Part shown: positions 21,980-39,790 of the stretch, one piece after another
How positions within the stretch are numbered: position 1 is the first letter of the stretch
Layout: every line of letters starts with the position of its first letter
Assembly (NCBI GenBank): GCA_030691635.1
Contig: JAUYEF010000428.1
Location: forward strand, 1,486 to 65,485
DNA from: Bacillota bacterium
Lineage (GTDB): Bacteria > Bacillota > Sulfobacillia > JAUYEF01
Direction: 5' to 3'
Length of the DNA stretch: 64,000 nt
The notes under the pieces: model-generated
Seen by the model: the letters and a program-made list of their open reading frames with translations, nothing else
The model's database searches: none
Told to the model about the DNA's origin: nothing
Position numbers and translations under genes: made by a program

Positions 21980-23584
21980 CTAACGCTGTGGCTTTTCGTC
22001 TGGTATTATCTCCCCTCCGAAGGCCTCAAGCACGCTTTTCACGAGCGGGTCTTCGGCAGGGTCCTTAGGGGCCTGCTTGGGGGCGCTGGCCGCCTCAAAC
22101 CGTGTCTTCACCGGCTGCCCGAGCGAGGCCGCAAGGGCTTTCTCCAGAACATCACGGTTCTCAGGCTTGTACATAATTTCTGTATGCGACGGATACACAA
22201 ACGTCAAGACGACCGTCCCGTCCTTGACAGTCCCTGGCTTCACGTAATGGAGAAGCGCCCCGACCGTTGGCCTTTCCTTCTTTGCACGCTCAATCACCGC
22301 AGCCCACGCCTTCCTCGCCGCGTCCGGGTCAAGCCGCACGGCATCGCCCTGCACGCTCGCCGCCGGTTCTGCCGCGGGCACACGAGACTGGAGGGCCGCA
22401 TCGGGTGGCGTGGGCACCCTGCCTGCCTGGGTCATCTTATCCGCCTGGGTCACCTTATCCGGCTGGGCCGCCGGGCCGGACTTCTGCGCGGGTGCGCCTG
22501 CGGGCGTCGCCTTGTTCGCCAGCGAAAGCAGGCATGTCTCCAGCACAAGACGTGGGCTGGCGTTCCAGCGCATCTCTGTCTCCGCCTCGGTCACCGCTTT
22601 CAGAGCGTCTATCAAGAAGGTGGCAGGGAGCAGCGCTGCCTCTCGCCCAAGTTGTTCGAGATCGCTCTCGGAGTGGCGAACACCACGTTTCGTCTTTGAG
22701 TCAACCAGCAACAGGTCCCGTATCCTCGCCCCGAGGTCTTTCGTGAACTGGCGCAGGTCACGACCTGTCTTCTGCACCTCATCAACAAGTTCGAAGATCG
22801 ATGCCAGGTCCTTTTCAGCTATCGCCACGACCGCACGGGACAGCGCCATCTTGTCCGGGATACCGAGAATGGACAGGACGACATCCTCTCCGACGTGGCC
22901 CTCTCCAAGCGAAAATGCCTGGTCAAGCACGCTGATCGCGTCCCGGAGCGCCCCGTCTGCCGCGCGTGCGATGGAGATGAGGGCCTCCTGATCGGCAGTC
23001 CCGCCCGCAGCTTCGGTGACCTCCTGCAGCCGGCCGACGATTTGCTCGGGCTCGAGCCGGTGGAAATCGAAACGCTGGCAGCGGGACAGGATGGTCAATG
23101 GAATCTTGTGCGCCTCGGTGGTGGCCAGGATAAACAGCGCGTGGGGCGGGGGCTCTTCGAGCGTCTTAAGCAGGGCGTTGAACGCCTCAGGCGTGAGCAT
23201 GTGGACTTCGTCGATTATGTAGACCTTGTACCTACACTCAGCCGGGTAGAACCTGACCTTCTCCCTGAGGTCCCTTATCTCATCAATGCCCCTGTTGCTC
23301 GCCGCGTCGATCTCGATCACGTCGAGGCAGTTCAAGGAGAGAATGGATTCGCAGCACGTGCATGCCCCGCATGGCTCGACCGACACACCTTGCTTGCAGT
23401 TGACGGCGCGCGCGAGTATGCGGGCCACCGTCGTCTTGCCCACTCCCCTCGGCCCTGCGAACAGGTATGCGTGTGCCAGTCTGCCCTGCGACAGCGCGTT
23501 CGCCAGAGTGGTGGTCACGTGCTCTTGCCCAACCACTTCCTTCAAGATCTTCGGCCGGTGTTGGCGGTAAAGCACTGTGTACAT
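21980..23584 (-). CDS. dnaX: DNA polymerase III subunit gamma/tau
   Basis: The start is set to the ATG at 23584 (MYTVLYRQHRPKILKEVVGQEHV). It has the Walker A motif GPRGVGKTT and the zinc module CGACTCC. The upstream part of the track ORF overlaps the SRP RNA terminator region. Confidence 0.95.
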   Translation of the reverse strand: MYTVLYRQHRPKILKEVVGQEHVTTTLANALSQGRLAHAYLFAGPRGVGKTTVARILARAVNCKQGVSVEPCGACTCCESILSLNCLDVIEIDAASNRGIDEIRDLREKVRFYPAECRYKVYIIDEVHMLTPEAFNALLKTLEEPPPHALFILATTEAHKIPLTILSRCQRFDFHRLEPEQIVGRLQEVTEAAGGTADQEALISIARAADGALRDAISVLDQAFSLGEGHVGEDVVLSILGIPDKMALSRAVVAIAEKDLASIFELVDEVQKTGRDLRQFTKDLGARIRDLLLVDSKTKRGVRHSESDLEQLGREAALLPATFLIDALKAVTEAETEMRWNASPRLVLETCLLSLANKATPAGAPAQKSGPAAQPDKVTQADKMTQAGRVPTPPDAALQSRVPAAEPAASVQGDAVRLDPDAARKAWAAVIERAKKERPTVGALLHYVKPGTVKDGTVVLTFVYPSHTEIMYKPENRDVLEKALAASLGQPVKTRFEAASAPKQAPKDPAEDPLVKSVLEAFGGEIIPDEKPQR

Positions 23585-23689
23585 TCGGAACCCCCGTTCG
23601 TGTCCTGCCGCTCGGACTTCTCCAGAGCGGTGCGCGTTTCCTCCAGCGCGCGGATTGCGCGCACGAGCCGGCAGAGCCCGCAGAAACAT

Positions 23690-23995
23690 CAGAAGACCTG
23701 GGGCATGACGCCCACAGGTCTTCTGTCCAATCTTATTGGCCGCGCACCCACCTTCGTCGGGTGGCTCCAGGCGGTATCCACGCAGCCGGCTCCGGCCAGG
23801 AGTGCCGCGGCACACGAAAGGGGCTGCTTACCGTTGCTTCCTCCCGGACCTGGCGGGGTTCACAGCTTTCCGTTGCGCGGGGCCAAGCCTTCTTCACCAC
23901 TTACGTGGGCCAGGGCCCCACAGCCACACGCCTCGGGGGGGGATTCGACCCCGCTGTAGCGGATTGCGGGTGCAGGGCACCGCTACCTCCCCGTC
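23690..23995 (-). ncRNA. ffs: Signal recognition particle RNA (probably the long Bacillus type); ends approximate
   Basis: The minus strand at 23853-23821 reads CCAGGTCCGGGAGGAAGCAACGGTAAGCAGCCC, the invariant domain IV motif with a GGGA tetraloop. It sits between tadA/tRNAs and dnaX exactly as scr does in B. subtilis. Upstream hairpins (GTAGCGG...CCGCTAC, GGGG-TCGAATC-CCCC) are consistent with an Alu domain. A hairpin plus ATGTTTCTG lies at 23725-23681. Confidence 0.8.
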
Positions 23996-24014
23996 TAGCG
24001 CGACCAAGCTGTTG

Positions 24015-24044
24015 ACAAACACAACCCGGCGAAAGGCCCCGGGT
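24015..24044 (-). terminator. Terminator after the tRNA-Ser pair
   Basis: Minus strand: ACCCGG-ggcctttcg-CCGGGT followed by TGTGTTTGT. Confidence 0.5.
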
Positions 24045-24057
24045 CTTGACATCAAAA

Positions 24058-24149
24058 TGGCGGAAGGAGTGGGATTCGAACCCACGAGACAGGTTTCCCG
24101 TCTACACGCTCTCCAGGCGTGCCCGTTCAGCCATCTCCGGCATCCTTCC
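24058..24149 (-). tRNA. tRNA-Ser (anticodon GGA), CCA encoded
   Basis: Reverse complement: GGAAGGATGCCGGAGATGGCTGAACGGGCACGCCTGGAGAGCGTG...GGGTTCGAATCCCACTCCTTCCGCCA. It has a 7-bp acceptor, a CU-GGA-GA loop and a long variable arm. Confidence 0.9.
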
Positions 24150-24150
24150 A

Positions 24151-24241
24151 TGGCGGAGAGGGTGGGATTCGAACCCACGAGGCGCCTAATACGCCTACCC
24201 GCTTTCGAGGCGGGCTCGTTCAACCGCTCTGACACCTCTCC
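24151..24241 (-). tRNA. tRNA-Ser (anticodon CGA), CCA encoded
   Basis: Reverse complement: GGAGAGGTGTCAGAGCGGTTGAACGAGCCCGCCTCGAAAGCGGG...GGGTTCGAATCCCACCCTCTCCGCCA. The anticodon loop is CU-CGA-AA. Confidence 0.9.
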
Positions 24242-24252
24242 GGTAACAAGAC

Positions 24253-24726
24253 CTATTCAGTTTGACGTCGTTCGCGGAAGAAGCGCTTCAGGATCTCGCC
24301 GCATTCTTCTCCAAGCACGCCCTGGATGACTTCAGGACGGTGGTTGAGCGCGACCGTACCAAGGACATCCATCACCGAGCCCGCCGCGCCGGCTCTCGGA
24401 TCGCAGGCGCCGAACACCACCAGCGGTATCCGGGCCTCCACGATAGCCCCCGCGCACATCGGACACGGCTCAAGCGTGACATACAGCGTCGTGCCTTCAA
24501 GACGCCACGCGCCCACGGCGCGCGCCGCGCCCCTGATCGCCAGCATCTCTGCGTGGGCCGTGGGATCGCGGGAAGTCTCTGTCAAGTTGTGGGCCCTCGC
24601 GATGATCTCCGAGCCCTTCACCACAACAGCGCCCACCGGGACCTCGCCGAGAACCAGCGCTATGGCGGCCTCTTGCAGCGCTTCCCGCATGAACGCCTTG
24701 TGGCCTGACGCGAATTGGGCCGGCAA
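24253..24726 (-). CDS. tadA: tRNA adenosine(34) deaminase
   Basis: 157-aa ORF. HAEMLAIRGAA...TLEPCPMCAGAI (CDA zinc motifs). Confidence 0.9.
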   Translation of the reverse strand: MPAQFASGHKAFMREALQEAAIALVLGEVPVGAVVVKGSEIIARAHNLTETSRDPTAHAEMLAIRGAARAVGAWRLEGTTLYVTLEPCPMCAGAIVEARIPLVVFGACDPRAGAAGSVMDVLGTVALNHRPEVIQGVLGEECGEILKRFFRERRQTE

Positions 24727-24756
24727 GCCGCTCGAGCACCTTCTTTGACAGACAAA

Positions 24757-24835
24757 TGGTGCGCCCGGGAGGACTCGAACCTCCGGCTGACGAGGATTAG
24801 GAATCCTCCGCTCTGTCCACCTGAGCTACGGGCGC
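24757..24835 (-). tRNA. tRNA-Arg (anticodon CCT)
   Basis: Reverse complement: GCGCCCGTAGCTCAGGTGGACAGAGCGGAGGATTCCTAATCCTC...GGAGGTTCGAGTCCTCCCGGGCGCACCA. At 79 nt the variable region is slightly long. Confidence 0.85.
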
Positions 24836-24858
24836 ATCGAAAAACACGGGTATTAAAA

Positions 24859-24935
<77 letters not shown>

Positions 24936-25027
24936 TCATGTTGCAGAGGTTATGATAACACAAAGCACCGCCTTGATTCAAGGACGGCAGGCCCGCGCGT
25001 CCCAAGAGTAACGTCTCAGGAGCAACG

Positions 25028-25057
25028 GAGAAACAAACAGGGCCGGCTGGGCCCCTG
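25028..25057 (-). terminator. Terminator after tRNA-Ser(GCT)
   Basis: Minus strand: CAGGGGCC-cagcc-GGCCCTG followed by TTTGTTTCT. Confidence 0.55.
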
Positions 25058-25065
25058 GAGAATTA

Positions 25066-25163
25066 TGGCGGAGAGGGAGGGATTCGAACCCTCGCTAGAG
25101 CTTTTCAGTGCCCTACTACAGGTTTAGCAAACCCGCCCCTTCAGCCGGCTTGGGTACCTCTCC
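25066..25163 (-). tRNA. tRNA-Ser (anticodon GCT), unusually long variable arm
   Basis: Reverse complement: GGAGAGGTACCCAAGCCGGCTGAAGGGGCGGGTTTGCTAAACCTG...GAGGGTTCGAATCCCTCCCTCTCCGCCA, 98 nt. Confidence 0.8.
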
Positions 25164-25278
25164 GCAGTATCGGCTGAACCTGGCCCGCTCTCATCGCGCA
25201 GGCGCAAACTATCATATCACGTCGATCTGGAGTCCGGCAATAAACAGCAGCATGAGGCATTGTTGGCAGCAATTGGTG

Positions 25279-25363
25279 TGGCGGAGGGGACAGGACTCGA
25301 ACCTGCAAGCCCCGAAGGGCGGTGGTTTTCAAGACCACTGCGCTACCATTACGCGACCCCTCC
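25279..25363 (-). tRNA. tRNA-Ser (anticodon TGA)
   Basis: Reverse complement: GGAGGGGTCGCGTAATGGTAGCGCAGTGGTCTTGAAAACCAC-CGCCCTTCGGGGCT-TGCAGGTTCGAGTCCTGTCCCCTCCGCCA. The loop is CU-UGA-AA. It has its own promoter (TTGCAG-17-TATACT) at about 25390-25418. Confidence 0.8.
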
Positions 25364-25442
25364 GCGAGCGGCTGCGCCGGTATTATTGAGTATATCATCG
25401 AGCGCGCGGGCCTGCAAACACGCGGAATTCCGGCAATGCGGA

Positions 25443-25475
25443 CAAAAAGGGGGTTTCGTGAGAAACCCCCGGCTT
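25443..25475 (-). terminator. Strong rho-independent terminator
   Basis: Minus strand: GGGGGTTTC-tcac-GAAACCCCC followed by TTTTTGT. Confidence 0.75.
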
Positions 25476-25705
25476 GAGAAAGCCAGACGCTGAAGAGCTT
25501 TCGACCCTCAACGTCTCTTACTGTTCTAACTGGAGCGTCGTCAGTTGCTGCGCTTGTTCTGCGATGTTGCCACGATGTTGCCTCGTCTAGTCAGGTCTGG
25601 TCTGCGGCTGTATTACGGACATGTCGCGTCTTTTTGTGCCGATGTTGCTTCGATCTGGTGCGAATGTGCTGCGATGGGTGCATCGGTGAGCGTCTAGCCT
25701 TTCCG
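25443..25705 (-). ncRNA. Unassigned ~260-nt RNA candidate (promoter-to-terminator unit)
   Basis: It is bounded by a near-consensus promoter and an intrinsic terminator. There is no ORF of 60 aa or more on either strand. The 5' and 3' ends can form a 14-bp closing helix. Internally it has GCAACAUCG x3. See findings. Confidence 0.45.
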
Positions 25706-25711
25706 CAACTG

Positions 25712-25740
25712 ACTATAACACCATGCGTTTTCGCTGTCAA
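25712..25740 (-). promoter_or_regulatory. Near-consensus sigma-A promoter with extended -10
   Basis: Minus strand: TTGACA (25740-25735), 17 nt ending in TGt, TATAGT (25717-25712). Confidence 0.6.
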
Positions 25741-25810
25741 CCCGTGTTTTTGTATTCGCCGGACGAATTTGGAGTTTTCTCACTAGCCGGCCAGCACGTA
25801 CGTTCCCGGG

Positions 25811-27088
25811 CTAAGCGGGCGCAATTCTCTGCGCGTTGTCCATATATGGTCTTAATACTTCCGGAATAGTCACCGTGCCGTCGGCGTTCTGGAAATTCTC
25901 GAGTATCGCTGCGAACGTACGCCCTATTGCAAGGCCTGATCCGTTGAGCGTATGCGCGTATTCGAGTTTCGCGCCCGGCGCCCGTCTGACCCTGATGTTC
26001 GCGCGTCTCGCCTGGAAGTCTTCGAAATTGCTGCAAGATGAGATTTCCTTATATCCGTTATAGCTGGGCAGCCAGACCTCAAGATCATAGGTTTTTGCCG
26101 ACGAGAAACTCATGTCGCCGCTCGACAGGCAGACCACCCTGTAGGCCAGGCCGAGCCCTTTCAGCACGTCCTCTGCGTCACTGGTGAGGCTCTCGAGTTC
26201 ATCGTATGACGTCTCCGGCAGGCAGAACTTGACCAGTTCCACCTTGTTGAACTGGTGATTGCGGATCAGGCCACGGGTGTCCTTGCCCGCAGCGCCCGCT
26301 TCTGCCCTGAAGCAGGCGCTGTACGCCGTGTAGTAAATGGGCAGCGCCGCCCCGTCCAGGACCTCGTCGCGGTGTATGTTCGTGAGAGGCACCTCCGCGG
26401 TGGGTATCAGGAAATAGTCGGTCCCGGCGACCCTGAACATGTCCGCCTCGAACTTCGGCAACTGGCCGGTGCCTGACATGGCCGCCCGGTTGGCCATAAA
26501 CGGCGGGAAGAGTTCCGTATACCCCCGCCGTGTCGTGTGCAGGTCCAGCATGTAGTTGACCAGCGCCCGCTCGAGACGCGCGCCCAGGCCCTTCAAGAAC
26601 ACAAACCGTGAGCCGGCCACCTTGCCGGCGCGCTCGAAGTCCAGCACTCCAAGCGCCGGGCCGAGGTCCCAGTGGGCCTTCGGCTCGAAATCGAACTCCG
26701 GAGGCTTGCCACATCGCCTTATCTCCACGTTGTACGTCGCGTCGACTCCGACGGGCACGGTGTCATGCGGGAGGTTGGGGATCAGCCACATCTTATCGTC
26801 GATCTGCTTTTCAATCTGGCCGAGTTGCTCGTCGAGCTCTTTGATGCGCTGCGATACATCCCTCATCTTGAGTATCAGAGCCTCGGCGTCCTTCTGCTGC
26901 TTCTTGTGCGCCGCTATCTGCTCTGACGTGCTGTTTCGCTCGCTCTTGAGCTTGTCGGCTTCGATTATGAGCGAACGCCTCTTTCCGTCCAGCGCAAGGA
27001 TTTCATCTATGTCGATCCCTGCGTTTTTCTTGGCGAGCCCTTCTTTGACCCTTTCAGGATTGGCCCTGATGAGCCTCAGATCCAACAT
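25811..27088 (-). CDS. serS: Serine--tRNA ligase
   Basis: 425-aa [24 protein letters not shown], an N-terminal coiled coil, and class II motifs ([37 protein letters not shown]). Confidence 0.95.
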
Positions 27089-27140
27089 TCCGTTTACCTC
27101 CCTGCGCGACTGATTCGAGTGGCCTTACTGGCCCGGCCGC

Positions 27141-28172
27141 TCAGGCCTTGCTCGATCCTATCGCGCGCAAAGACTCCTCGAACGGTGGGTACACGATGCC
27201 CGCGTCGAACACGAGCGCCGTGATGTGCTGGTGCGGCGTCACGTCGAAGGCCGGGTTCAGCACGTCGACGTCCTCCGGCGCCACCCTGACGCCGGCCATC
27301 ATCCGCACTTCGTCCGCGTCTCTCTCCTCTATGACGATGGCGTCGCCCGCCGGCATCGAAAGGTCGACAGTCGAAGCCGGAGCCGCCACATAGAACGGTA
27401 TCCCGTGGTGCCTGGCAAGCACAGACAGGCCATATGTCCCTATCTTGTTCGCAGCGTCCCCGTTACGGGCGATCCGGTCGGCCCCGACGACGACTGCCTG
27501 CACTCGCTGCGTTTTCATCACGTGTGCGGCCATGTTGTCCGTTATGAGGGTGACCGGTATGCCGTCCTCCTGGAGTTCCCATGCGGTGAGCCTGGCCCCC
27601 TGCAGTAGGGGCCTCGTCTCGCATGCGATCACCCTGACGCCCTTGCCGGCCTCGTGAGCCGCTCGTACGACTCCCAGCGCGGTCCCGTAGCCCGCGGTCG
27701 CAAGCGCTCCTGCGTTGCAGTGGGTCATAACGGTCGCGCCTCTTGGGAGCAAAGCCGCGCCCGCGGCGCCGATGGCCTTGCACATGGCCAGGTCCTCCGC
27801 TGCGATCGCCGTCGCCTCCGCTACGAGCGCTTCGTACAGCGTCCCGCTCGGCTCCTCCACCTGGATGTTCGCGTCCAGCCTGAGGGCCCGGGCCAACATA
27901 CGGTTCACCGCCCACGACAGGTTGACCGCGGTGGGCCGCGCGTCCTTCAGGCCGCGTGCGGCATCATCCAGGCGGTCGCCCGCCCGTGCCGCGAGAGCCA
28001 TACCGAACGCAGCCGCCACGCCTATGGCAGGCGCGCCCCGCACAACCATGCGCCGCACAGCGTGCCGCACCTCCTGCCAGGTCGCGCAATTCACCCAGAC
28101 GGTCTCGCCTGGGAGTCTCCGCTGGTCAAGAAGCACCAGCGTATCCTGTTCGAACCTCACTGGCGACAGCAT
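27141..28172 (-). CDS. mtnA: S-methyl-5-thioribose-1-phosphate isomerase
   Basis: 343-aa [13 protein letters not shown]...[19 protein letters not shown] and [20 protein letters not shown]. Confidence 0.9.
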
Positions 28173-28973
28173 CTAGCCCATCCTTGACCGGACGATTGTC
28201 TCCTCGCACTCGCACGTGCGGTTTCTCGGCACTGCCTGGATGGTCGCATGGATGAGGGACTTGAGCTTATCCACGTTTTCGTTGAACACCCTGATCACCT
28301 CGTCGTGGGTGACGGGCTTGATATCGGGCCTGCCCTCAAGCCCTGCGTCGTAGTCGGTCACGAGCGCGACGGTCGCATAGCACATGCCGAGCTCCTTGGC
28401 CAGCGCGGCTTCAGGGTACTGCGTCATGCTGACAACATCCCAGCCCATGGCGGAGAACCAGCGGCTCTCCGCCTTAGTAGAGAATCGAGGGCCCTGGATG
28501 ACCACGATGGTTCCTCTGGGATAGTGGGGGATCCCGAGTTCCCGGGCTTTGGAGATCATCAGGCCCCGCAGGTCGGGGCAATACGGCTCGGCCATCGGCA
28601 CGTGTGTGGTCACCGGCCCGTCGTAGTATGTGTCCTTCCTGTTCCTGGTCCTGTCCACGAACTGGTCGCAGAACACGAACTCACCGGGCTTGATCCCCGG
28701 TTGCAGGCTGCCGCACGTGCACGGGCCTATCACTCGTCTGACACCGAGACTCCAGAGCGCCCATACGTTTGCCCGGTAATTGATGGCGTGCGCCGGGTAC
28801 TGGTGGTCCTTGCCGTGCCTCGGCAGGAAAGCCACTCGCCTGCCGGCCAGTGTGCCCAGCGCCACCTTGTCGCTGGGGGCGCCGTACGGGGTGTCCACTT
28901 TCATCTCTGACATGTCCTCGAGAAACCTGTAAAAGCCCGAGCCGCCGAAGACCCCGATCTCCGCCCTTTCCAT
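28173..28973 (-). CDS. mtnP: S-methyl-5'-thioadenosine phosphorylase
   Basis: The start is set to the ATG at 28973, behind GGGAGGG. IGVFGGSGFY...FLPRHGKDHQYPAHAINYRANVWAL. Its TAG stop abuts the mtnA ATG. Confidence 0.9.
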   Translation of the reverse strand: MERAEIGVFGGSGFYRFLEDMSEMKVDTPYGAPSDKVALGTLAGRRVAFLPRHGKDHQYPAHAINYRANVWALWSLGVRRVIGPCTCGSLQPGIKPGEFVFCDQFVDRTRNRKDTYYDGPVTTHVPMAEPYCPDLRGLMISKARELGIPHYPRGTIVVIQGPRFSTKAESRWFSAMGWDVVSMTQYPEAALAKELGMCYATVALVTDYDAGLEGRPDIKPVTHDEVIRVFNENVDKLKSLIHATIQAVPRNRTCECEETIVRSRMG

Positions 28974-29051
28974 CCAGAGACCCTCCCAATGTTGAATGTC
29001 CGGCGCAACCGCCACCGGCTGGGCCCGGAGTCAACGGGCCCTTTTCGAACG

Positions 29052-29297
29052 TAAACAAAAACCCCGTCCCTCAGGGACGGGGTATGCTCCCGCGTTGCCA
29101 CCCTGGTTGGAGGCCGCCACCAAAGTGGCGTGCCGCCCACCTCGAATGCCCTTTAACGGGGGCCCCGCCCGGCTTCGCGCCCGCTTCGCCGGAGGCTCCG
29201 GGGTGGATTCACCGATCCCCGCCTGGCTCGCACCCTCCGCCAGGTCACTTATCGCGGGGTAACTGGTTACTATTCCCGTCATCGCCGTGTTTTGATT
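29052..29297 (-). promoter_or_regulatory. T-box riboswitch leader, serine specifier UCC
   Basis: Stem I: GGC-GAUGA-CGGG-AAUAGUA ... AGUGA bulge, distal hairpin CCUGGC-GGAGGGUGCGA-GCCAGG ... GAA-UCC-A-CCCG-GA-GCC. The F-box CCGUUA is present. The T-box sequence is AACCAGGGUGGCAACGCGGGAG (bulge UGGC). The terminator is ACCCCGUCCC-UGA-GGGACGGGGU-UUUUGUUU (29083-29052). Confidence 0.8.
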
Positions 29298-29303
29298 GGC
29301 CCT

Positions 29304-29333
29304 ATTATATCCCACACCACAGCAAGCATGCAA
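29304..29333 (-). promoter_or_regulatory. Sigma-A promoter of the T-box leader
   Basis: Minus strand: TTGCAT (29333-29328), 18 nt, TATAAT (29309-29304). Confidence 0.55.
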
Positions 29334-29347
29334 TAACCTGCCGCTCA

Positions 29348-30808
29348 CTAGCCTTTAATCACTCCCATGGGCACGAGTCTCGCCACTTTCTTGCCGAGGC
29401 CAGCCTGTTCGGCGATGCCCACCACCAGGCTCACGTCCTTGTAGGCTTCGGGCGCTTCCTCAACGAGAGACCCCATGCTCTGGGCCTTGACGAAAATGCC
29501 CCTGGCCTTGAGTCCTGCAATCAAGTCCTGCGCGCGCAGGACTTTCTTCGCGCTCGCGCGGCTCATGGTGCGGCCCGCGCCGTGGCAGCAGGAGCCGAAC
29601 GTCTCCTGCATCGCGACGTCGGTCCCGGCCATCACGAACGAGCACCTGCCCATATCACCCGGCACCAGCACAGGCTGGCCGTGCTTCCTGTACGCCAGAG
29701 GCACGTCAGGGTGGCCTGGCCCGAACGCCCTGGTGGCGCCCTTCCGGTGGACACATACCGTGACGGGAGGCCCGCCCGGCCGCTCGGGATGCTTCTCGAT
29801 CTTGGCGATATTGTGGGCGACGTCGTACAGCAGGTCGAGCCCGAGTTCCGCCTCCGGCTTTCCGAGCGCGCGGGATATGGCCTGCCTGGCGAGGTGTGTC
29901 ATCACCTGACGGTTGGCCCACGCGTAGTTGGCCGCACAGCTCATGGCCGCGAAATACTGGCCACCCTCGGGCGACTTCACTGGCGCGCAGGCCAGCTGGC
30001 GGTCGGGCAGGCTGATGCCGTACTTCCCGACCGCGCCCGTCATCACCGAGATGTAGTCGGTGCATACCTGGTGGCCGAAGCCCCGGGAGCCGGAGTGTAT
30101 CTGGAAGGCGACGAATCCCTTTTTTAGCCCGTACGCTGCCGCAATGTCTTCGTCGTATACCTCTTCGATCTCCGATGCCTCTATGAAGTGATTGCCCGAG
30201 CCGAGCGTTCCGACCTGGGCGAGCCCCCGCTTGAACGCCTTGTCGCTGACCGCGGCGGCGTCGGCCTGCTTCATGCGCCCGTTTTCCTCACAGAACTCGA
30301 CATCGCGCTCGCGCCCGAACCCCTGTTCCACAGCCCAGGCGGCCCCCTCAGCGCAGATCCTCCTGAGGTCTCCGTGCGCCGTCTTGATGGCGCCCTTAGA
30401 GCCCACACCCGACGGGATCGCCGAGAAAAGCGCTCTCACCAGGCCCTCAAGTCTCTCCCGTGCCTGCTCTGCCGTCACGCGGGACGTTAGTATGCGCACA
30501 CCGCAGTTGATGTCGTACCCGACGCCGCCGGGCGAAATCACACCGTCATCAACCCTTGTGGCCGCGACTCCCCCGATCGCGAACCCGTACCCGAGGTGGA
30601 TATCAGGCATCGCGAGGCTGGCCCTGACTATTCCTGGCAGGAACGCCACGTTCGCGACCTGTTCCGGCGCTTCGTCCAGCCTCAGCGCGTCGAGGACCGC
30701 GCCGTCTGCGTAGATGACGCCCGGGACGCGCATGCCGGGCTTGTAGTCCCTGGGAATCTCGTACCTGCAAACACCCGCTTTTCTCAAGGGGCCTTTCCAC
30801 TCAGGCAT
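29348..30808 (-). CDS. rtcB: RNA-splicing ligase RtcB
   Basis: GVGYDINCGVR, HSGSRGFGHQV and CCHGAGR. The start is set to the second ATG (30808), behind an AAAGGAGG SD. Confidence 0.9.
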   Translation of the reverse strand: MPEWKGPLRKAGVCRYEIPRDYKPGMRVPGVIYADGAVLDALRLDEAPEQVANVAFLPGIVRASLAMPDIHLGYGFAIGGVAATRVDDGVISPGGVGYDINCGVRILTSRVTAEQARERLEGLVRALFSAIPSGVGSKGAIKTAHGDLRRICAEGAAWAVEQGFGRERDVEFCEENGRMKQADAAAVSDKAFKRGLAQVGTLGSGNHFIEASEIEEVYDEDIAAAYGLKKGFVAFQIHSGSRGFGHQVCTDYISVMTGAVGKYGISLPDRQLACAPVKSPEGGQYFAAMSCAANYAWANRQVMTHLARQAISRALGKPEAELGLDLLYDVAHNIAKIEKHPERPGGPPVTVCVHRKGATRAFGPGHPDVPLAYRKHGQPVLVPGDMGRCSFVMAGTDVAMQETFGSCCHGAGRTMSRASAKKVLRAQDLIAGLKARGIFVKAQSMGSLVEEAPEAYKDVSLVVGIAEQAGLGKKVARLVPMGVIKG

Positions 30809-30859
30809 GCGAGCGCCTCCTTTGCGGCCAGCCATGGGCCCAGCAGCCCTAAGACGTCT

Positions 30860-31303
30860 CTATACGTCAAACACGACCCTTGCCCTGAATCCGCCTGGGC
30901 CTGGGACCAGGGCGAGACCGTGCAGTGTCGCCGCCTTGACTTCACGGAACGGGCCATAACGCTTCACAGAATACCTGTCGCCGAGGCCCGTGGCAAGGAC
31001 CGTGACCCAGTCAAGGTGCGATGTTATGTCAACCGTGCACTCCACCGGAAGCAGAAGGCGTCGTGCATCAAGGGTGAAAAGCAGCTCATTCAGGAACGCC
31101 ACCAGAGACTCGTCAAGGCTCCGCCCGCCGGCCTCGACCACTACCGGAAGGAGCGGGCGGATAGCGGCATCTCCCTTGAAGCCCAGTGTAGCATAGAGCG
31201 CCGCGATCGCTCCCCGGAACACGTCCTCGAGTGTTGCCCCAGTGATCTCGGCGCCCGCATCTGCCGTATGTTCGATCTCTTCGATCCGAAAACCCTGGTT
31301 CAG
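30860..31303 (-). CDS. Archease (RtcB activator), apparent CTG start
   Basis: The frame upstream of the track ORF encodes [34 protein letters not shown]; the HTAD motif is essential to archease. There is no ATG/GTG/TTG upstream. The CTG at 31303-31301 overlaps the gyrA TGA and has an AGGAGG SD 7 nt upstream. Confidence 0.75.
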
Positions 31304-33732
31304 ACCTCGTCCTCCTTCGCCCGGACCACGCTGACCGCCGAGAGCGTGTCGCTTTCGGGCAGTTTCATCAGCGTGACCCCTTGAGCGTAGCGGCCGTGGG
31401 TGCGGAAGTCCGCGATGCTGACACGTATCACCGTGCCTTCGGCGGACACGAGCACCGCTTCATCGGTCTTGTCCACCACGCGAATGGCCGCCACAGGGCC
31501 GTTCCTCGCGCTGGTCTTGATGGCCAGCACGCCTTTTCCGCCCCTGGCATGCACCGGGAAATCGTCGAGCTGCACGAGCTTGCCGTAGCCGCGCGCGGTG
31601 ACCACAAAGAGCTCCTTACCTTGCTCATGGACATCAAGTCCGACGACCGAGTCTTCCTTGTCCAGGCGGATGCCGCGGACTCCCCTGGCGCTGCGGCCCA
31701 TCGCACGCACGTCACCCTCCGGGAAGTGGAGGCAGCGGCCGCGCTGTGTGGCTAGCAGGAGCTTCGACTCGCCACCGGTCATCCTGACGGAGATGAGCTC
31801 ATCGCCCTCCGACAGCGACAGCGCGATGAGCCCAGTCCTGCGGATGTTCTCGAACTCCGGAAGCCCTGTCCTCTTGACGGTCCCCATCTTGGTCGCGAAA
31901 AAGAGGTAGGACTCTGCGCTGACATCCCTAAGCGGGATCACGGCGGTCACCTTTTCGCCCTCCCCGAGCTCGAGGAGGTTCACCACAGCAGTGCCTTTTG
32001 CCTGGCGCCCGGCTTCCGGGATCTCGAAGCCCTTGAGCTGGAACACCTTGCCGCGGTTCGTGAAGAAGAGCATGTCGTGATGGGTGGTCGTCGCATAGAT
32101 GTTCACGACCACGTCCTCTTCACGCGTCCCCATGCCGGCGATGCCGCGGCCGCCTCTCTTCTGGTTCCGGTATGTGGACAGGGGAAGCCGCTTTATGTAG
32201 CCGAACTGGGTCATCGTCACGATGATGTCCTCTTCGGCGATTAGGTCCTCGACGTCCACGTCGGACTCCGCTTCGGTGATGCGAGTCCGTCTCGCGTCGG
32301 AGAACTTCTTTTTTATGTCGCCAAGCTCTTTCTTGATGATGCCATACACCATGCGCTCGCTCGCAAGCACCGCACGCAGGTACTCGATGAGCTTAACAAG
32401 CTCCTGGTACTCCTGCTCGATCTTCTCCCGCTCCAAGCCGGTCAGCCGCTTGATCTGCATGTCGAGTATGGCCTGGGCCTGCTTGTCGGAGAGCCCGAAC
32501 TCGGCCATCAGCCTCGACTGGGCTTCTTCGGTCGTCCGTGACTGGCGGATGAGCTGGATGATGCGGTCAAGGTTCGAAAGCGCGATGCGCAGTCCCTCAA
32601 GTATGTGGGCCCTTGCCTCGGCTCTCGCAAGCTCATGCCTGGTCCGGCGTATGACGACTTCCTTCTGGAACTCCAGGTAGTGGAATACTACATCCCTGAG
32701 CCCCAGCGTCTTGGGCTCCTGGTTGACCAGGGCGATCATTATGACACCGAACGTGGTCCTGAGCTGCGTGAACTTGTATATCTGGTTCAGGACAACGCGG
32801 TCGTTCGCGTCCCTCCTGAGGTCAATGACGATCCGCATCCCAGACCTGTCCGTCTCGTCGCGCAGGTCGGCGATGCCCTCAATCCTCCGGTCGCGGACCA
32901 GGTCTGCTATGGTTTCGATCAGCTTCGCCTTGTTCACCTGGAAAGGTAGCTCACTGATGATGATGCGCGGCCGGCCACCTGGGCCCGGCTCGATCCTTGC
33001 CACGCCGCTCATGGTTATGAGGCCGCGGCCGGTGGTGTATGCGTCCACTATCCCCTTGCGCCCCACGATGAGCCCACCGGTCGGGAAGTCAGGGCCTTTG
33101 ACGATCTTCATCAGGTCCTCGGTGGTGACCTCGGGCTTCTCTATCATCTTGAGGATCCCGTCGATCACTTCCCCCAGGTTGTGCGGGGGGATATTGGTAG
33201 CCATACCGACCGCGATGCCAGCAGACCCGTTCACCAGCAGGTTCGGGAAGCGGGACGGGAGCACGACCGGCTCCTTGAGCGATTCGTCGAAGTTCGGGGC
33301 GAAGTTGACCGTCTCTTTGTCGAGGTCCCGCAGCATCTCCAAAGATATCGGGGCGAGCCTGACCTCTGTGTACCGCATGGCCGCGGCTTCGTCGCCATCG
33401 ACCGATCCGAAGTTCCCATGGCCTTGGACAACCGGGTACCGGGTGGTGAAGTCCTGCGCCAGCCTGACCATGGCGTCGTAGACAGCGGGGTCAGAGTGGG
33501 GGTGGTACTTACCGAGCACCTCGCCGACCACACGCGCCGATTTCCTGAAGGGCTTGGTCGGCTCGAGTCCGAGGTCGTACATCGCGTAGAGTATCCGGCG
33601 CTGGACAGGCTTCAACCCGTCGCGCACGTCCGGCAGCGCTCTTGAGACTATGACGCTCATCGCATAATCCAGGTAGGATTTGCGTATCTCGTCCTCTATG
33701 TGGATTCCTACTACCTTGCTGGCCTCGTCCAA
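31300..33732 (-). CDS. gyrA: DNA gyrase subunit A
   Basis: 810-aa [29 protein letters not shown] and [18 protein letters not shown]. Confidence 0.97.
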
Positions 33733-33801
33733 TCGGGCACTCCACTCCTTGGCGTTCGCCGCATCCGCCCGGCCCCGGGAGCGCTGGGCGGCAGCCCTGC
33801 A

Positions 33802-35730
<1,929 letters not shown>

Positions 35731-35856
35731 CTAACCTCCCAGGCAAAGATCACTCCTAATTATACCACAAGGGCCTGATTAAGCAGCAATTTGGACAGCC
35801 GGCAAGCAGGCCGGAACAACATGGAGATAACCCGGCGAGATGCGTCCAGATTGAGC

Positions 35857-36111
35857 CTAGAGAAGTTTTGCGGGCACGCCGATGGTTCTCTTGCTCAACG
35901 TCAACGCTGAGATGGGAGAGAGGTAGACGCGGTCGTTGATTATCACAAACGACTTCGGATCACCTTCAGAGATGTCCTCAAGGACCCCTTCGTCTTTCAT
36001 CACAGTGAGAAACTCCCTGGTCGCGGGAGACAGGTCTGCCGCCCGCAGGTCTATGATCGCTATGATGTCGTCCGACCTGACACTCCTGTCAGCTCCGACG
36101 TGCAGGAACAT
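35857..36111 (-). CDS. remB: Extracellular matrix regulator RemB (DUF370)
   Basis: 84-aa ORF (IIAIIDL...KSFVIINDRVYLSPISALTL), located between recF and gyrB as in B. subtilis. Confidence 0.8.
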   Translation of the reverse strand: MFLHVGADRSVRSDDIIAIIDLRAADLSPATREFLTVMKDEGVLEDISEGDPKSFVIINDRVYLSPISALTLSKRTIGVPAKLL

Positions 36112-36132
36112 TATTCATGCCTCCGTTGTTGA

Positions 36133-37011
36133 CTATGTCTTCTGGGCCCTGGAGCTTCGCTTGTCCGGCACCGCCTGGTCTACCGCCTCTTCGGTCAGGC
36201 TCTCAGGGGGTGTGTTCGTCAGAAGCATGGCGAGTTTCGCCCTCGCCAACCGCAAACTGCTCTGGGATGACTTCGTGCGCTTGGCCCTCAAGTCTTTGAC
36301 CTCTTTGGACCAGACCGATAGCAGGATGTCTCTCGCGGTCAGGTATTCCTCTTCGCCCAGACAGGGGGCGATCTCCTTCAGGCCATGCGCGTCGAGCCAC
36401 GGTACTTCGGAAAGAAGAGAAAGGGCCTTCCCCTGGTTCATCCGCTTTTCCTGTGTCCGGCACGCCGTGCAGAGCCCGCCTTCGCCGAGCGCGCCGCACA
36501 CAGGGCAGGGGAGCATACCGCTTGCCCTGAGCACACTATCCCTTTTCGCCGCCGTCATGAGTAGTCTCTGCAGAGCGGCTCTCGCGTTATCATCCTGTGC
36601 GTGCAGCAGGAGCGCCTGAATGCGTCGCCACTCTTCATCCTGGAGGGGCATGGTCTTGAGCTTGTGCCGCCCGGGCCACTCTATGACGCGGCCAGGCTCC
36701 TCTGCGGTATCGGCCGTGGACCTTCCAGTCCGGCCCGAGAACCTTATGTCCTTTATGTACTCGCCGCCAAGAAGCGAATTCAGCCGGCGGAGGATCGTCG
36801 GCTTGAGGAGATGAAGCTCCTGCCGCCAGGCAGGGCTCTCCGCCGCGACCAGCAAGCAACTGGACGATACGCCGACCGGCTTCGCCCTGGCGGCGACGCG
36901 TTCGCCGACCGCCTCCGCCCAGACAGAAAGCGCTGCCCACCGCATGGCCTGCGGCCATAGGCCTTGCTTCTTCAGCAGAGTCTCGATCGTCGCTGCAACC
37001 TGCTCAGCCAC
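36133..37011 (-). CDS. DUF721/DciA-like protein with a long zinc-ribbon C-terminal extension
   Basis: The N-terminal ~100 aa (WPQAMRWAALSVWAEAVGERVAARAKPVGVSSSCLLVAAESPAWRQELHLLKPTILRRLNSLLGGEYIKDIRF) fit DUF721. About 190 aa follow, containing CPVCGALGEGGLCTAC. Confidence 0.65.
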   Translation of the reverse strand: MAEQVAATIETLLKKQGLWPQAMRWAALSVWAEAVGERVAARAKPVGVSSSCLLVAAESPAWRQELHLLKPTILRRLNSLLGGEYIKDIRFSGRTGRSTADTAEEPGRVIEWPGRHKLKTMPLQDEEWRRIQALLLHAQDDNARAALQRLLMTAAKRDSVLRASGMLPCPVCGALGEGGLCTACRTQEKRMNQGKALSLLSEVPWLDAHGLKEIAPCLGEEEYLTARDILLSVWSKEVKDLRAKRTKSSQSSLRLARAKLAMLLTNTPPESLTEEAVDQAVPDKRSSRAQKT

Positions 37012-38119
37012 CTGCTACCATCTCCACCTCTCCGCCCTGGACGCGGTAGTACTCCGTCTTGGTGGGTAGGACCGGCCGGAAAGGCGCGTGGTCAGTGCAG
37101 GTCAGGAAGACCTGGACATCCGTCGAGACTGCCTCGAGCAGACGGTGCCTGCGAGAGGCGTCGAGCTCTGAAAGGATATCGTCGAGCAGCAGGACCGGCA
37201 GGTCGCCCGTCTCCTGACGCAGAAACTCGATTTCAGATACTTTCACGCTGACGACGATGCTCCTTTGCTGCCCCTGCGAGGCATACTGACGCGCGTCCAT
37301 TCCATTGAGGCTGAACACGATGTCGTCCCGGTGTGGACCGACAAGAGTGACCGCTTTCTGGCGTTCCAGGTTCGCGCGTTCCCTGAGACGCCTTCGGAAA
37401 GCCTCTTCTACCTGCGATATCGCTTCGTCCCCTCGCAGAGGGACGCTCGGCCTGTAGAGCACGTCGAGGTCTTCTCCAGGGGCAAACCGGCTGTGCACGC
37501 CGCGGGCGACCGGTGCTATCTTCTTCAATGCCCGAAGGCGCTTCTGGTACAGCCTGCCGCCGTGGTCAACGAGCTGTTCGGTCCAGACCTCGACGCTTGG
37601 GTCAGCGGGGGATGCGCCGGCTCGAAGCAGTGAGTTGCGCTGGCTCAGCACCTTTGTGTAGCGCGAGAGGTCGAAGGCGTATGTGGGATCGACCTGGGAT
37701 ATCTCCTGGTCGAGGAAGCGGCGCCTGAGAGAGCCTGCTCCCTTGACCAGCTGCAGGTCGTCCGGGACGAACAGCACCACCCTCACCTGAGGAGCGAGAC
37801 CCTCTGACTGCCGCCTGGGAATCCCGTTCACGAGAACGGACTTCCCCTTTTGTTCTGAGTATGAGACCTCGATCTCTACGGTCCTGGAAGCGGCGGCAAA
37901 GACGCCCCTGACCAGAAACGATGGCCTGTCCCAACGGACCATTTCCGCATCCGCGCCGGCACGGTGCGAGGAGCCCCGTGCAAGGAGGTATATGGACTCA
38001 AGCAAGTTGGTCTTTCCCTGGGCGTTTTCCCCGAAGAAGACCATCGTCCCGGAGATGGACCTGAGACCGAGATGAGCGTAGTTGCGGAAGTCCTCAAGCA
38101 CAAGCTCCTGCAGGACCAA
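37004..38119 (-). CDS. recF: DNA replication/repair protein RecF
   Basis: 371-aa ORF. LEDFRNYAHL, GENAQGKTNLLE and LLLDDILSELD. TTG start. Confidence 0.95.
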   Translation of the reverse strand: MVLQELVLEDFRNYAHLGLRSISGTMVFFGENAQGKTNLLESIYLLARGSSHRAGADAEMVRWDRPSFLVRGVFAAASRTVEIEVSYSEQKGKSVLVNGIPRRQSEGLAPQVRVVLFVPDDLQLVKGAGSLRRRFLDQEISQVDPTYAFDLSRYTKVLSQRNSLLRAGASPADPSVEVWTEQLVDHGGRLYQKRLRALKKIAPVARGVHSRFAPGEDLDVLYRPSVPLRGDEAISQVEEAFRRRLRERANLERQKAVTLVGPHRDDIVFSLNGMDARQYASQGQQRSIVVSVKVSEIEFLRQETGDLPVLLLDDILSELDASRRHRLLEAVSTDVQVFLTCTDHAPFRPVLPTKTEYYRVQGGEVEMVAGG

Positions 38120-38143
38120 CCTGAGTTCCCCGCCTCTCTCGGC

Positions 38144-38362
38144 CTATCTCTTGGTCTCGACGACAAGGACTATGCTACCCAGGGTCACCCTGTCGCCCGG
38201 AAGTATCTTGCGCGAGCGCCGGGTCTCGGGTCGCCCGTTCACTTCGACCTGCCCGGAGCGGATGACGTGTTTGGCCGCTCCTCCTGTCAGAGCTGCGCCG
38301 CTCCACTTGAGCAGGGCGTCCAGGTTTATGCTTTCGGAAGAGATGAAGACGGGCTGTTCCAC
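38144..38362 (-). CDS. yaaA: S4 domain RNA-binding protein YaaA
   Basis: 72-aa ORF (LDALLKWSGAALTGGAAKHVIRSGQVEVNGRPETRRSRKILPGD), located between dnaN and recF. Confidence 0.8.
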   Translation of the reverse strand: MEQPVFISSESINLDALLKWSGAALTGGAAKHVIRSGQVEVNGRPETRRSRKILPGDRVTLGSIVLVVETKR

Positions 38363-38432
38363 CTTGCCCTCCGCTCAGTGTTGCCGCGGCTTCGTTGCAC
38401 GCCGGCCGGTGCACCCACTCCAGGGCGCCTTC

Positions 38433-39545
38433 TCAATCGCCCAGCGTGCGCAGCGGCATCGCCACGTATATGTTGTTTTCGTTATCCGAAGGTTTGATAC
38501 AGCAGGGGCTATAGGGGCCGTTGGCCTGGAAGAGCACTTTCTCGCTGTTTATCGCCTCAAGCCCGTCTATCAAGTAGCGCGCGTTGAATGCGATCTCAAG
38601 CGCGTCACCTTCCACCGAGCACTCCAGTTCTTCGCGGACCTTGCCGACTTCCGGCGTGCTCGAGGTGATGACCAGCAGGTCCTCTTTGGCTTCTATCTTG
38701 ATCGTCCGGTCGTTGTCAACCGACAGCAGGCTCGCCCGTTCGCAGGCATCATGGAAGTCCTGAGTGCTGAGCGAAACCTGAGTCCGGAACTTCGACGGGA
38801 TTATCTGTTCGTACGGAGGGAATTGTCCTTCAAGCAGGCGTGACACAAAGCGCGTCTCTCCGAGGTCGAAGAAAACCTGGTTCTCGGTCGCCGAGAGCGT
38901 GCACTCCTGGGCCAGATCGCTCGAGAGCAGGCGCGACACTTCGTTGGCTGCCCTGCCCGGGATGACTGCCCTCTGCGCGGCCCCAGACCAGGAGATCTCT
39001 GCTTTGGCCATGGCCAGCCTCACTCCATCGATCGCCACCATCCTGACTTCGGACGGCAGGATCTCCAGCAACTCGCCTGTCAGGACCGGCCTGCTTTCGT
39101 TCTGCGCCACGGCGAAGGCCGTGCCACGGATCATGTCCTTGATCTTCGACTGGCCTATCTTGACGCCCTCAGACCCAGACTCAAAGAGTATCTTCGGGAA
39201 CTGCTCCGGCTCGAGCCCGTGAACGATGAACTGCGATCGCCCCCAGGTGATCGACGCCGTCCAGTTCGACCTCTCGACCTGTATCTTGATGTCGCCTCCA
39301 GGTATCTTCCTCACGATGTCAAGAAGGTACCTTGCGGGAAGGATTATGCCGCCCGGTGTGTCGACCGTCGCCTTCACGCTGCTAGAGATGCTTATCTCGT
39401 TGTCGCTTGCCATGAAGATGAGCCTGTCGTTTTCGGCTTTGAGAAGTATGCCGGTAAGTGCTGGTATAGTGCTGTTTGTTGCCACAGCTCGATGGACGGT
39501 CAGTACTCCTGTCGTCAGATCAGCCTGAGGGATTGTGATGAACAA
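38433..39545 (-). CDS. dnaN: DNA polymerase III beta sliding clamp
   Basis: 370-aa ORF of three-domain clamp length, immediately downstream of the dnaA/oriC spacer. TTG start. Confidence 0.95.
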   Translation of the reverse strand: MFITIPQADLTTGVLTVHRAVATNSTIPALTGILLKAENDRLIFMASDNEISISSSVKATVDTPGGIILPARYLLDIVRKIPGGDIKIQVERSNWTASITWGRSQFIVHGLEPEQFPKILFESGSEGVKIGQSKIKDMIRGTAFAVAQNESRPVLTGELLEILPSEVRMVAIDGVRLAMAKAEISWSGAAQRAVIPGRAANEVSRLLSSDLAQECTLSATENQVFFDLGETRFVSRLLEGQFPPYEQIIPSKFRTQVSLSTQDFHDACERASLLSVDNDRTIKIEAKEDLLVITSSTPEVGKVREELECSVEGDALEIAFNARYLIDGLEAINSEKVLFQANGPYSPCCIKPSDNENNIYVAMPLRTLGD

Positions 39546-39559
39546 ACTATCCCCAGCCC

Positions 39560-39790
39560 CTTTCTTCTAATGCGTTTTATATAGGAAAAGAGTAGAAGTA
39601 GTAGGTCCTGTGGATACTGTGGAAGGCGGCTGTCTTTCAGCGTTCGACAGGCATCTACATACCGGCCGCCTGTGGGCAATCGTCTGAGTATCCTACGACA
39701 CATTGTGGGTTTGTCCCTCTGTCCCGGAACTTTCCACAGCTACTCTTCTTTTATCAACAGGATACCTCCAGCATTGTCCACACCCTGTGT
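39560..39790 (-). other. oriC part 2 (dnaA-dnaN spacer): DnaA boxes, DnaA-trios, AT-rich unwinding element
   Basis: In plus coordinates: an AT-rich stretch at 39561-39589; trios GAG-TAG-AAG-TAG-TAG at 39590-39604; GTCC; and tandem boxes TGTGGATAC (39609-39617) and TGTGGAAGG (39618-39626). Further boxes are CTTTCCACA (39730-39738), TTATCAACA (39751-39759) and TTGTCCACA (39774-39782). Confidence 0.75.

Follow-up and report, generated by a model that had tools for sequence, protein, structure and literature searches.

The stretch of DNA analysed here (64,000 nt, hereafter the window) is a replication-origin region, and the unit that concerns us is found in it approximately 14 kb from dnaA, among stable-RNA genes. 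The order of genes on the minus strand is dnaA, dnaN, recF, a gene with a DciA domain, gyrB, gyrA, archease and rtcB, followed by a T-box leader, mtnP, mtnA, serS, the RNA unit, tRNA-Ser(tga) and tRNA-Ser(gcu), and then by tRNA-Arg(acg), tRNA-Arg(cct), tadA, tRNA-Ser(cga), tRNA-Ser(gga), the SRP RNA gene and dnaX. The mtnP-mtnA-serS operon is preceded by a Ser T-box (29070-29291), and the archease-rtcB pair is located 3.6 kb upstream of the RNA unit. As serS is an ORF of 425 codons (25811-27088), the promoter of the unit begins 70 nt past the serS stop, which is the distance given in the preliminary description of this DNA.

A near-consensus promoter and a strong intrinsic terminator bracket approximately 262 nt of the minus strand between serS and the tRNA-Ser gene (Table 1). 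The consensus scan recovers every promoter element where it had been placed previously, namely TTGACA (25740-25735), a 17-nt spacer ending in TGt, and TATAGT (25717-25712), corresponding to a match at 11 of the 12 consensus positions in addition to the TG. Five promoter-like sites are seen over 4 kb where 1.0 is expected by chance, and that of the RNA unit is the best of them. The terminator reads GGGGGTTTC-TCAC-GAAACCCCC followed by TTTTT on the minus strand, and the terminator scan gives a stem at 25470-25449 (6 G-C pairs among its 9) with a T-run at 25448-25444. Because the stem starts at 25470, the left edge that had been proposed (25475) lies 5 nt too far upstream, while the right end agrees. 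The characterization of the unit as “free-standing” seems reasonable insofar as it has its own promoter and terminator, but a strict separation from its neighbor does not hold, as the scan finds no terminator between the serS stop and the unit. With the gap left open in this way, the unit may at the same time form the 3' UTR of the mRNA from the serS operon, and transcripts of this operon probably end at the RNA unit's terminator as well. On the other side, tRNA-Ser(tga) has an extended -10 promoter of its own both in the window and in locus L167, in agreement with the earlier conclusion that the unit is not a tRNA leader.

Table 1. Positions of the elements of the RNA unit in the window and of the homologous units in related loci (L numbers)
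Feature	Positions	Strand	Remarks
-35 hexamer TTGACA	25735..25740	minus	TTGACAG invariant in all homologues
Extended -10 TGtTATAGT	25712..25720	minus	start predicted at about 25704-25706 from spacing only
P1, 5' strand UUGCGGAAAGGCUAGACGCU	25689..25708	minus	bulged G25698 is the sole variable base (G/C/U)
Interior, 173 nt	25516..25688	minus	rich in A and C with hardly any structure; array of about 15 phased 11-nt units (consensus near CGCAGCAACAU); includes P2
P2 hairpin	25604..25627	minus	loop CCGUAAU (25618-25612) almost invariant; stem varies, with some compensatory change
GACGUU, then P3 hairpin GAGGGUC-GAAA-GCUCUUC	25492..25515	minus	GACGUU invariant; hairpin at 25509-25492 directly abuts P1
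P1, 3' strand AGCGUCUGGCUUUCUCAA	25474..25491	minus	CAGCGUCUGGCUUU identical in the shorter unit of L173 also
Intrinsic terminator	25444..25470	minus	9-bp stem, 4-nt loop, U5; two stem pairs altered on both sides in relatives
Homologous unit, L161	3508-3772
Homologous unit, L162	4381-4645
Homologous unit, L163	4382-4645		NCBI MAG GCA_040960625.1
Homologous unit, L164	2359-2625		identical in L165
Homologous unit, L166	4391-4650
Homologous unit, L167	4388-4649		partial copy in L168
Homologous unit, L170	1474-1736

A search for the unit downstream of serS in related genomes, which the preliminary description had called for, finds it there in eight loci. The protein search returns SerRS relatives at 99, 95, 89, 89, 86, and 71–74% identity, and the contigs that encode these proteins (eight metagenome or MAG loci) all carry the RNA unit directly after serS, with a length of 260–267 nt in every case. 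The promoter and the terminator are kept in all eight, so that what had been described as an independently promoted and terminated non-coding RNA of about 260 nt is found as such in the relatives; the same elements are conserved together with the RNA in L166, L167 and all aligned loci, as is generally looked for in an sRNA gene. As it recurs after serS in eight other loci, the unit goes beyond what chance would supply, and we are confident that 25443-25740 is a real non-coding RNA gene. In 7 of the 8 homologue loci, and also in the more distant L173, tRNA-Ser(tga) comes next after the unit (this order is seen in the window, L161–L163, L166, L167, and L173). L170 has the unit with no tRNA downstream, and L171 (SerRS 67% identical) has neither the unit nor the two tRNA-Ser genes.

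It had been stated that no ORF of at least 60 aa exists on either strand. This is correct within the transcribed unit, although a 77-aa ORF on the plus strand (25260-25493) and a 99-aa ORF on the minus strand (25737-26036) clip its ends. The internal ORF of 30 codons is present as described and has no Shine-Dalgarno sequence. A conserved small ORF would have spoken against an RNA gene; the ORFs differ between homologues, none is conserved among them, and single-base indels that are not multiples of 3 run through the alignment. We therefore consider it extremely unlikely that the locus encodes a micro-peptide, be it from the 30-codon ORF or from a short ORF starting at ATGTCCGTAATA. The former is found in the window, L161, L162, and L163, and an ORF beginning ATG-TCC-GTA recurs in several homologues. 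Against this, the 30-aa ORF is missing in L164, L166, L167, and L170, the ORF at ATGTCCGTAATA ranges from 11 to 34 codons and has AAG in place of its ATG in L166, and neither Shine-Dalgarno sequences nor freedom from single-base indels speak for translation.

Conservation is distributed unevenly along the unit. In alignment A1 the -35 motif TTGACAG and the -10 motif TGnTAT, the first 20 nt (CGGAAAnGCUAGACGCU), the loop CCGUAAU, and the 3' block from GACGUUGAGG to UCUUCAGCGUCUGGCUUUCU are invariant or nearly so, whereas no alignment is possible among homologues for the 70 nt that separate serS from the promoter. The four-fold degenerate sites of serS offer a convenient yardstick for these values. 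Between the window and L163 the four-fold sites are 53% identical, compared with 75% for the RNA interior and 98–100% for its ends; between the window and L166, L167, or L170 the four-fold sites are at 32–38% (saturated), the RNA ends at 83–90%, and the interior at approximately 50%. By this measure the whole RNA is under constraint.

The distribution of the gene is narrow. Among the matches listed, 160 loci with SerRS relatives at 55–67% identity lack the RNA unit according to single-sequence nhmmer, profile nhmmer, and a regular expression for the clamp described below. BLAST against plasmid and phage collections gives no match to the unit, and a viral scan for the 14-mer CAGCGTCTGGCTTT gives 120 chance matches, none of which fits the RNA profile. 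The RNA was found only in one uncultured Bacillota clade, whose nearest named SerRS relatives are 63–67% identical. At the margin of this range, L173 (SerRS 67% identical) carries a shorter unit of about 136–155 nt in the same place, with a promoter. It is closed by a 15-bp stem, immediately followed by a U7 tail. The 3' strand of this stem, CAGCGUCUGGCUUU, is the same as in the RNA family, and the two bases at which the 5' strand differs remain able to pair with it. An 11-nt phasing of the kind described below is absent from the L173 unit. It is a probable distant relative of the RNA, with the clamp and without the array, and homology would mean that the clamp arose before the array.

The fold of the RNA consists of a closing helix (P1, the clamp), two hairpins (P2 and P3), and the terminator stem. 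The pairing of GAAAGGCUAGACGCU (25703-25689) with AGCGUCUGGCUUUC (25491-25478) that was suggested to close the molecule has the correct coordinates and is present in both the MFE and the centroid folds. Extended to its full length, P1 comprises 18 pairs, 14 of which never vary in alignment A1 and one of which shows a compensatory change (G-C to C-G). Two pairs of the terminator stem are altered on both sides in the same alignment (G-C to A-U and U-A to C-G). When P1, P2, P3, and the terminator are taken together, 94% of the cells of A1 are paired, in comparison to 39–52% when the partners are slid by 1–3 columns. P2 keeps its 7-nt loop CCGUAAU, with a stem that is variable in sequence and register among homologues. 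The hairpin GAGGGUC-GAAA-GCUCUUC, one of two local hairpins pointed out previously, is supported as P3, a 7-bp hairpin with a loop of mostly GNRA type and no spacer to P1; the other, CGAUG-CACC-CAUCG, is conserved in the closest relatives only. Beyond P2 we find no consistent fold in the interior, where RNAalifold gives weak and inconsistent pairs and single-sequence folds differ between homologues, and the folding z-score of the whole RNA is only −1.43. The term “structured RNA” is therefore right for the frame (18-bp clamp, two hairpins, terminator) and wrong for the body, because only these elements are consistent and the 170-nt interior is the least foldable sequence of its length in the window.

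This lack of structure is quite pronounced. The interior measures 170–174 nt in all homologues and has a base composition of A 35%, C 28%, G 22%, and U 15%, with an A+C content (58–68%) that falls in the top 0–2% of windows. Its MFE is −15 to −35 kcal/mol, relative to a mean of −62 ± 10 kcal/mol for 300 random same-length windows of this sequence, of which 0 fold as weakly. Within this unstructured context there is an excess of short motifs. The count given previously for the interior, with GCAACAUCG occurring three times and CAUCGCAG twice, is accurate, and when 7 non-identical homologues are summed and compared with dinucleotide-preserving shuffles, CGCAG occurs 23 times (4.0 expected), GCAGCA 17 times (2.2 expected), and AGACG 14 times (2.6 expected), which corresponds to 5–8 times expectation, with the restriction that the homologues are related (five of the eight are close relatives), so that they are not independent and the shuffle p-values overstate significance. 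CGCAG is found in 7 of 7 non-redundant homologues at 3.3 per interior, where 0.6 is expected. A short motif that lies well above chance in accessible RNA, with its number kept across relatives, is what one would look for in a multi-site decoy.

The motifs are also regularly spaced. CG dinucleotides in the interior lie 10–12 nt apart or at multiples thereof, and at a period of 11 the summed spectral power reaches 40.8 for CG and 30.5 for GCA, where about 6 is expected; no other integer period from 5 to 20 rises above 13. A fine period scan places the peak at 11.0–11.2 nt separately in the group of the window, L163, and L164 and in the group of L166, L167, and L170, the interiors of which are only about 50% identical between groups. 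Stacking the sequence in rows of 11 nt gives approximately 15 units with a loose consensus near CGCAGCAACAU, in which P2 is in register with the array and the information per position is low. Phase and motif count have been retained through extensive replacement of the sequence, which speaks for selection on spacing, while the phasing could in part be a relic of an origin by tandem duplication under a length constraint.

Since the architecture invites comparison with known RNAs, we searched for membership in described families. With Rfam 15 at gathering thresholds there is nothing at 25443-25740, and the hits on this strand are the SRP RNA (23740-24003) and six tRNAs. A permissive scan of the unit by itself (E ≤ 10) gives one meaningless match on the plus strand, and the homologues give nothing on the unit at the gathering score or at E ≤ 5. 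The Rfam search that had been recommended thus matches no family to the unit or to any homologue, and the RNA is outside every family in Rfam 15. The earlier judgment that this is not SRP, 6S, tmRNA, or RNase P RNA agrees with these results: no covariance model matches, ARAGORN reports no tmRNA, and the SRP RNA is a separate gene. A T-box leader can be set aside as well, as the unit has no T-box match and is downstream of serS, with the Ser T-box of the operon at a separate position upstream. Other resemblances were also considered and rejected. A link to serine was looked for through complementarity and similarity to the six neighboring tRNAs, and it finds no support: duplex energies are no better than those of shuffles, and a T-box-like UGGC and a UCGAAA loop that mimics an anticodon loop are not conserved in relatives. 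The P2 region, which we presumed to resemble the 530-loop region of 16S rRNA, has no SSU rRNA match at E ≤ 10, and the presumed likeness of the terminator stem to parS is not supported, in that the terminator sequence changes in L166 and L170. We found nothing relevant in the literature on an sRNA downstream of serS or on one with 11-nt repeats.

Among described systems, the closest functional analogy appears to be the decoy type represented by CsrB and RsmZ (CsrA) and CrcZ (Hfq/Crc), though without its defining motif. As in these, the candidate is an sRNA a few hundred nucleotides in length that is transcribed separately and ends in a terminator, and its body consists of imperfect copies of a short motif in accessible RNA, with the number of motifs better kept than the sequence. 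The motif here is CGCAG(C/A)A/AGACG, in contrast to GGA or an A-rich ARN run, and GGA occurs only 0–2 times per interior, so a CsrA sponge of the CsrB/RsmZ type is rejected. The sites here are also single-stranded and strictly phased at 11 nt, whereas theirs are in hairpin loops at irregular spacing, and an invariant 18-bp clamp surrounds the array here. ToxI-like RNAs, the type III antitoxins, are similar in being short promoter-to-terminator units whose transcript is a tandem repeat array, but with near-identical repeats of about 36 nt in place of degenerate 11-nt units, and with a toxin gene downstream where here there are tRNA genes, for which reason this identity is rejected too. Y RNA and YrlA share with the unit a sequence-conserved terminal helix with a bulge that closes a large, variable, loose loop, and an archease-rtcB pair is nearby, much as the Y-like RNAs of Salmonella belong to rsr-yrl-rtcBA operons. 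The helix is unrelated in sequence, however, the unit has neither a Y RNA match nor a tRNA-like module, the weak YrlA match of L173 falls on tRNA genes, and no TROVE domain is found among the 20 neighboring ORFs scanned; this identity is rejected likewise. While a promoter-to-terminator sRNA with repeated motifs is a known arrangement, an invariant clamp around a strictly 11-nt-phased unstructured array is new.

The comparisons described above establish a real and conserved non-coding gene with a clamp-plus-open-loop architecture and phased, repeated motifs in its interior. What the RNA does, including its abundance and its action in trans, we infer from these features. The reading that we favor, though tentatively and with somewhat less than even confidence, is that of a trans-acting, highly expressed, multivalent decoy or scaffold sRNA that presents a clamped single-stranded repeat array. 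According to this reading, the two ends of the ~262-nt transcript would pair into the invariant clamp P1, which would be stacked on P3 and followed by the terminator. The clamp would then hold out approximately 170 nt of A/C-rich RNA with almost no structure of its own, in which about 15 degenerate 11-nt units would present CGCAG(C/A)A and AGACG in constant phase, interrupted only by P2. Such phased single-stranded repeats may accommodate one ligand in many adjacent copies. This would presumably be a single-strand RNA-binding protein that oligomerizes or forms filaments or rings; a G/U-rich RNA is a less likely candidate. The invariant clamp may act as an anchor, stabilizer, or nucleation site. 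A more specific version takes the array as the functional core of a new class of RNP scaffold, on which some 15 protomers of a single-strand RNA-binding protein would assemble cooperatively, one per 11 nt, along the clamped loop; this would give an abundant filament- or ring-like particle, that is, a titration device like CsrB with another geometry and another partner, in a Gram-positive lineage from which no protein-sponge sRNA is known, and we regard it as doubtful at about one chance in four. We know of no bacterial RNA-binding protein documented to read CGCAGCA at an 11-nt spacing. The most conserved parts of the RNA are the clamp, the P2 loop, and GACGUUGAGG rather than the repeats, so the key function could lie there, with the array as a spacer. 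As a separate observation, the probable distant relative in L173, which has a clamp and no array, counts against a decoy or scaffold.

Of the competing readings, the chief one still standing is a conventional base-pairing sRNA with seeds in the exposed P2 loop (GUCCGUAAUA), in the single-stranded GACGUUGAGG, in the CU-rich 3' block, or in several of these. In this case the A/C-rich array would provide flexible spacing or contribute additional weak seeds. The invariance of CCGUAAU and GACGUUGAGG across 8 loci in which stems and interior vary is what one would expect of seeds, the promoter and the terminator with its U-tail are the standard layout of an sRNA gene, and an unstructured body gives accessibility. 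At the same time, the 64-kb window has nothing complementary or similar to the RNA and no target was found in it, 260 nt is long for a seed-type sRNA, and base pairing leaves the fixed interior length, the motif excess, and the 11-nt phasing in both subclades unexplained, so we hold this reading to be possible, with a probability of about a quarter. Far less probable is a cis element, acting either as a 3' UTR or terminator module of the T-box-controlled mtnP-mtnA-serS operon or as an attenuating leader for tRNA-Ser(tga) and tRNA-Ser(gcu). This would account for the open gap after the serS stop, for the position of the unit next to serS in every locus with tRNA-Ser(tga) following in most of them, and for the joint absence of the unit and both tRNA-Ser genes in L171. 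It is difficult to reconcile with a near-consensus promoter that is as conserved as the RNA itself, with the separate promoter of tRNA-Ser in the window and L167, and with L170, where no tRNA follows; attenuation in particular is disfavored by a GC-rich 9-bp terminator with no conserved alternative pairing.

The remaining alternatives each start from one property of the unit. Paired 5' and 3' ends, a strong promoter of housekeeping type, probable abundance, and a position among housekeeping and stable-RNA genes near the origin recall 6S RNA (RF00013) or Ms1 RNA, and the RNA could be a functional analogue that binds RNA polymerase; we think this very unlikely, as there is no 6S match at E ≤ 10 on the unit or at E ≤ 5 in divergent homologues, the interior (A 35%, U 15%, and an MFE far weaker than background) cannot form a rod, and there is no conserved central bubble or terminal stem, P2 being the sole conserved interior helix. 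An 11-bp period is near the helical repeat of DNA, and 11-bp repeats in arrays make up plasmid centromeres such as parC of R1, which at a locus about 14 kb from dnaA brings to mind a centromere- or iteron-like DNA array for a DNA-binding protein, with incidental transcription. The strand-asymmetric composition (the sense strand is A+C-rich and U-poor), the conservation of promoter and terminator, the RNA-level pairing that the terminator and P1 keep through sequence change, and units too degenerate for typical repeat-binding proteins make this reading very improbable. Rho as the ligand, with the RNA as a super-rut site or Rho decoy, is also very improbable. Rho primary sites accept YC dimers with 9–13-nt linkers, YC+N9 being the shortest compatible spacing (PMC6144790), so that the 11-nt period corresponds to YC+N9, and like a rut site the interior is unstructured with C > G in all homologues. 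In contrast to a rut site, YC dimers are depleted (5.9–13.4%, vs. 15.5% in background windows), the longest (YC)N9–13 chains are 2–5 long and are not above background (5.1) or shuffles, the C–G skew is modest (top 5–34% only), and the conserved motif is CGCAGCA instead of YC.

If expressed as predicted, the RNA would be a new and highly expressed family from a little-known lineage of Bacillota. Its design, in which an invariant double-stranded clamp presents an unstructured and strictly phased repeat array, is undescribed for bacterial sRNAs, and the regular 11-nt register points to a cooperative, geometry-dependent assembly as opposed to independent sites. Protein-titrating sRNAs are well known in Proteobacteria and, to our knowledge, essentially unknown in Firmicutes-type bacteria, and knowing the partner could bring to light a new regulator that acts globally and post-transcriptionally. 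Even as an ordinary base-pairing sRNA, the gene would be a clean and conserved candidate with defined ends and elements and a set of homologues for experiments.

The mtnP-mtnA-serS operon, in which two methionine-salvage genes lie alongside serS, is preceded by a T-box leader with the apparent specifier UCC (Ser), then A, and with UGGC in its T-box bulge. Its Rfam match is below the gathering score of 93. serS is therefore probably under T-box control via the three-gene operon. Comparable matches occur in three of the other loci (see table). The 105-codon ORF overlapping the leader gave no match in a Pfam search and is probably not a genuine gene; the gene call at the equivalent position in the related locus L162 likewise had no Pfam match.

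The RNA itself lies in the chromosomal origin region, with dnaA, dnaN, recF, a DciA-domain protein gene, gyrB and gyrA, next to which are archease and rtcB. This archease-RtcB RNA-ligase pair shares the strand of the RNA and lies 3.6 kb upstream of it; L162, L163 and L173 likewise have rtcB close to the unit. For the two ORFs adjoining dnaA, Pfam gave no match at E<=1e-5. The last 76 nt (3' end) of the SRP RNA gene (window 23740-23815) fall within the mechanical dnaX ORF, and the true start of dnaX probably lies downstream of the mechanical GTG.

Features of the origin region and of the compared loci
Feature	Locus	Coordinates	Strand	Remark
Origin region	window	21980-41214		
dnaX mechanical ORF	window	21980-23815		GTG start
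SRP RNA gene	window	23740-24003		
tRNA-Ser(cga)	window	24151-24241		compared with P3 loop
P3 loop region	window	25498-25505		UCGAAAGC
ORF, 105 codons	window	29031-29348	-	overlaps T-box leader
T-box leader	window	29070-29291	-	75.5 bits, E 1e-16
ORF, 95 codons	window	41308-41595	-	adjoins dnaA
ORF, 127 codons	window	41702-42085	-	adjoins dnaA
Gene call, 91 aa	L162	763-1038		
T-box match	L166	916-1125		92.2 bits
T-box match	L167	822-1032		
T-box match	L173	818-1038		
Shorter unit	L173	4438-4609		position of the RNA in the window
Unit absent	L171	4293-4600		
Unit absent	L174	4281-4515		

The loop region of P3, the small hairpin near the 3' end of the unit, shares an identical 8-nt stretch with the neighbouring tRNA-Ser(cga), in the region of its anticodon loop. 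This sequence is not kept in the related loci L162, L166, L167 and L170, so the resemblance is probably due to chance.

L173, a more distant MAG (SerRS 67% identical), carries a shorter unit with the promoter TTGACT-17-TATGAT and a 15-bp closing stem, 14 nt of whose 3' strand are identical to those of the RNA family. A U7 tail follows immediately after this stem; a separate terminator hairpin and the 11-nt phasing of the interior are both absent. This shorter unit may represent the RNA in its ancestral form. The unit is absent from L171 and L174 (SerRS 66-67% identical), and in L171 tRNA-Ser(tga) and tRNA-Ser(gcu) are missing from this position as well; thus these two tRNA genes tend to occur where the RNA occurs and to be missing where it is missing, with L170 as an exception.
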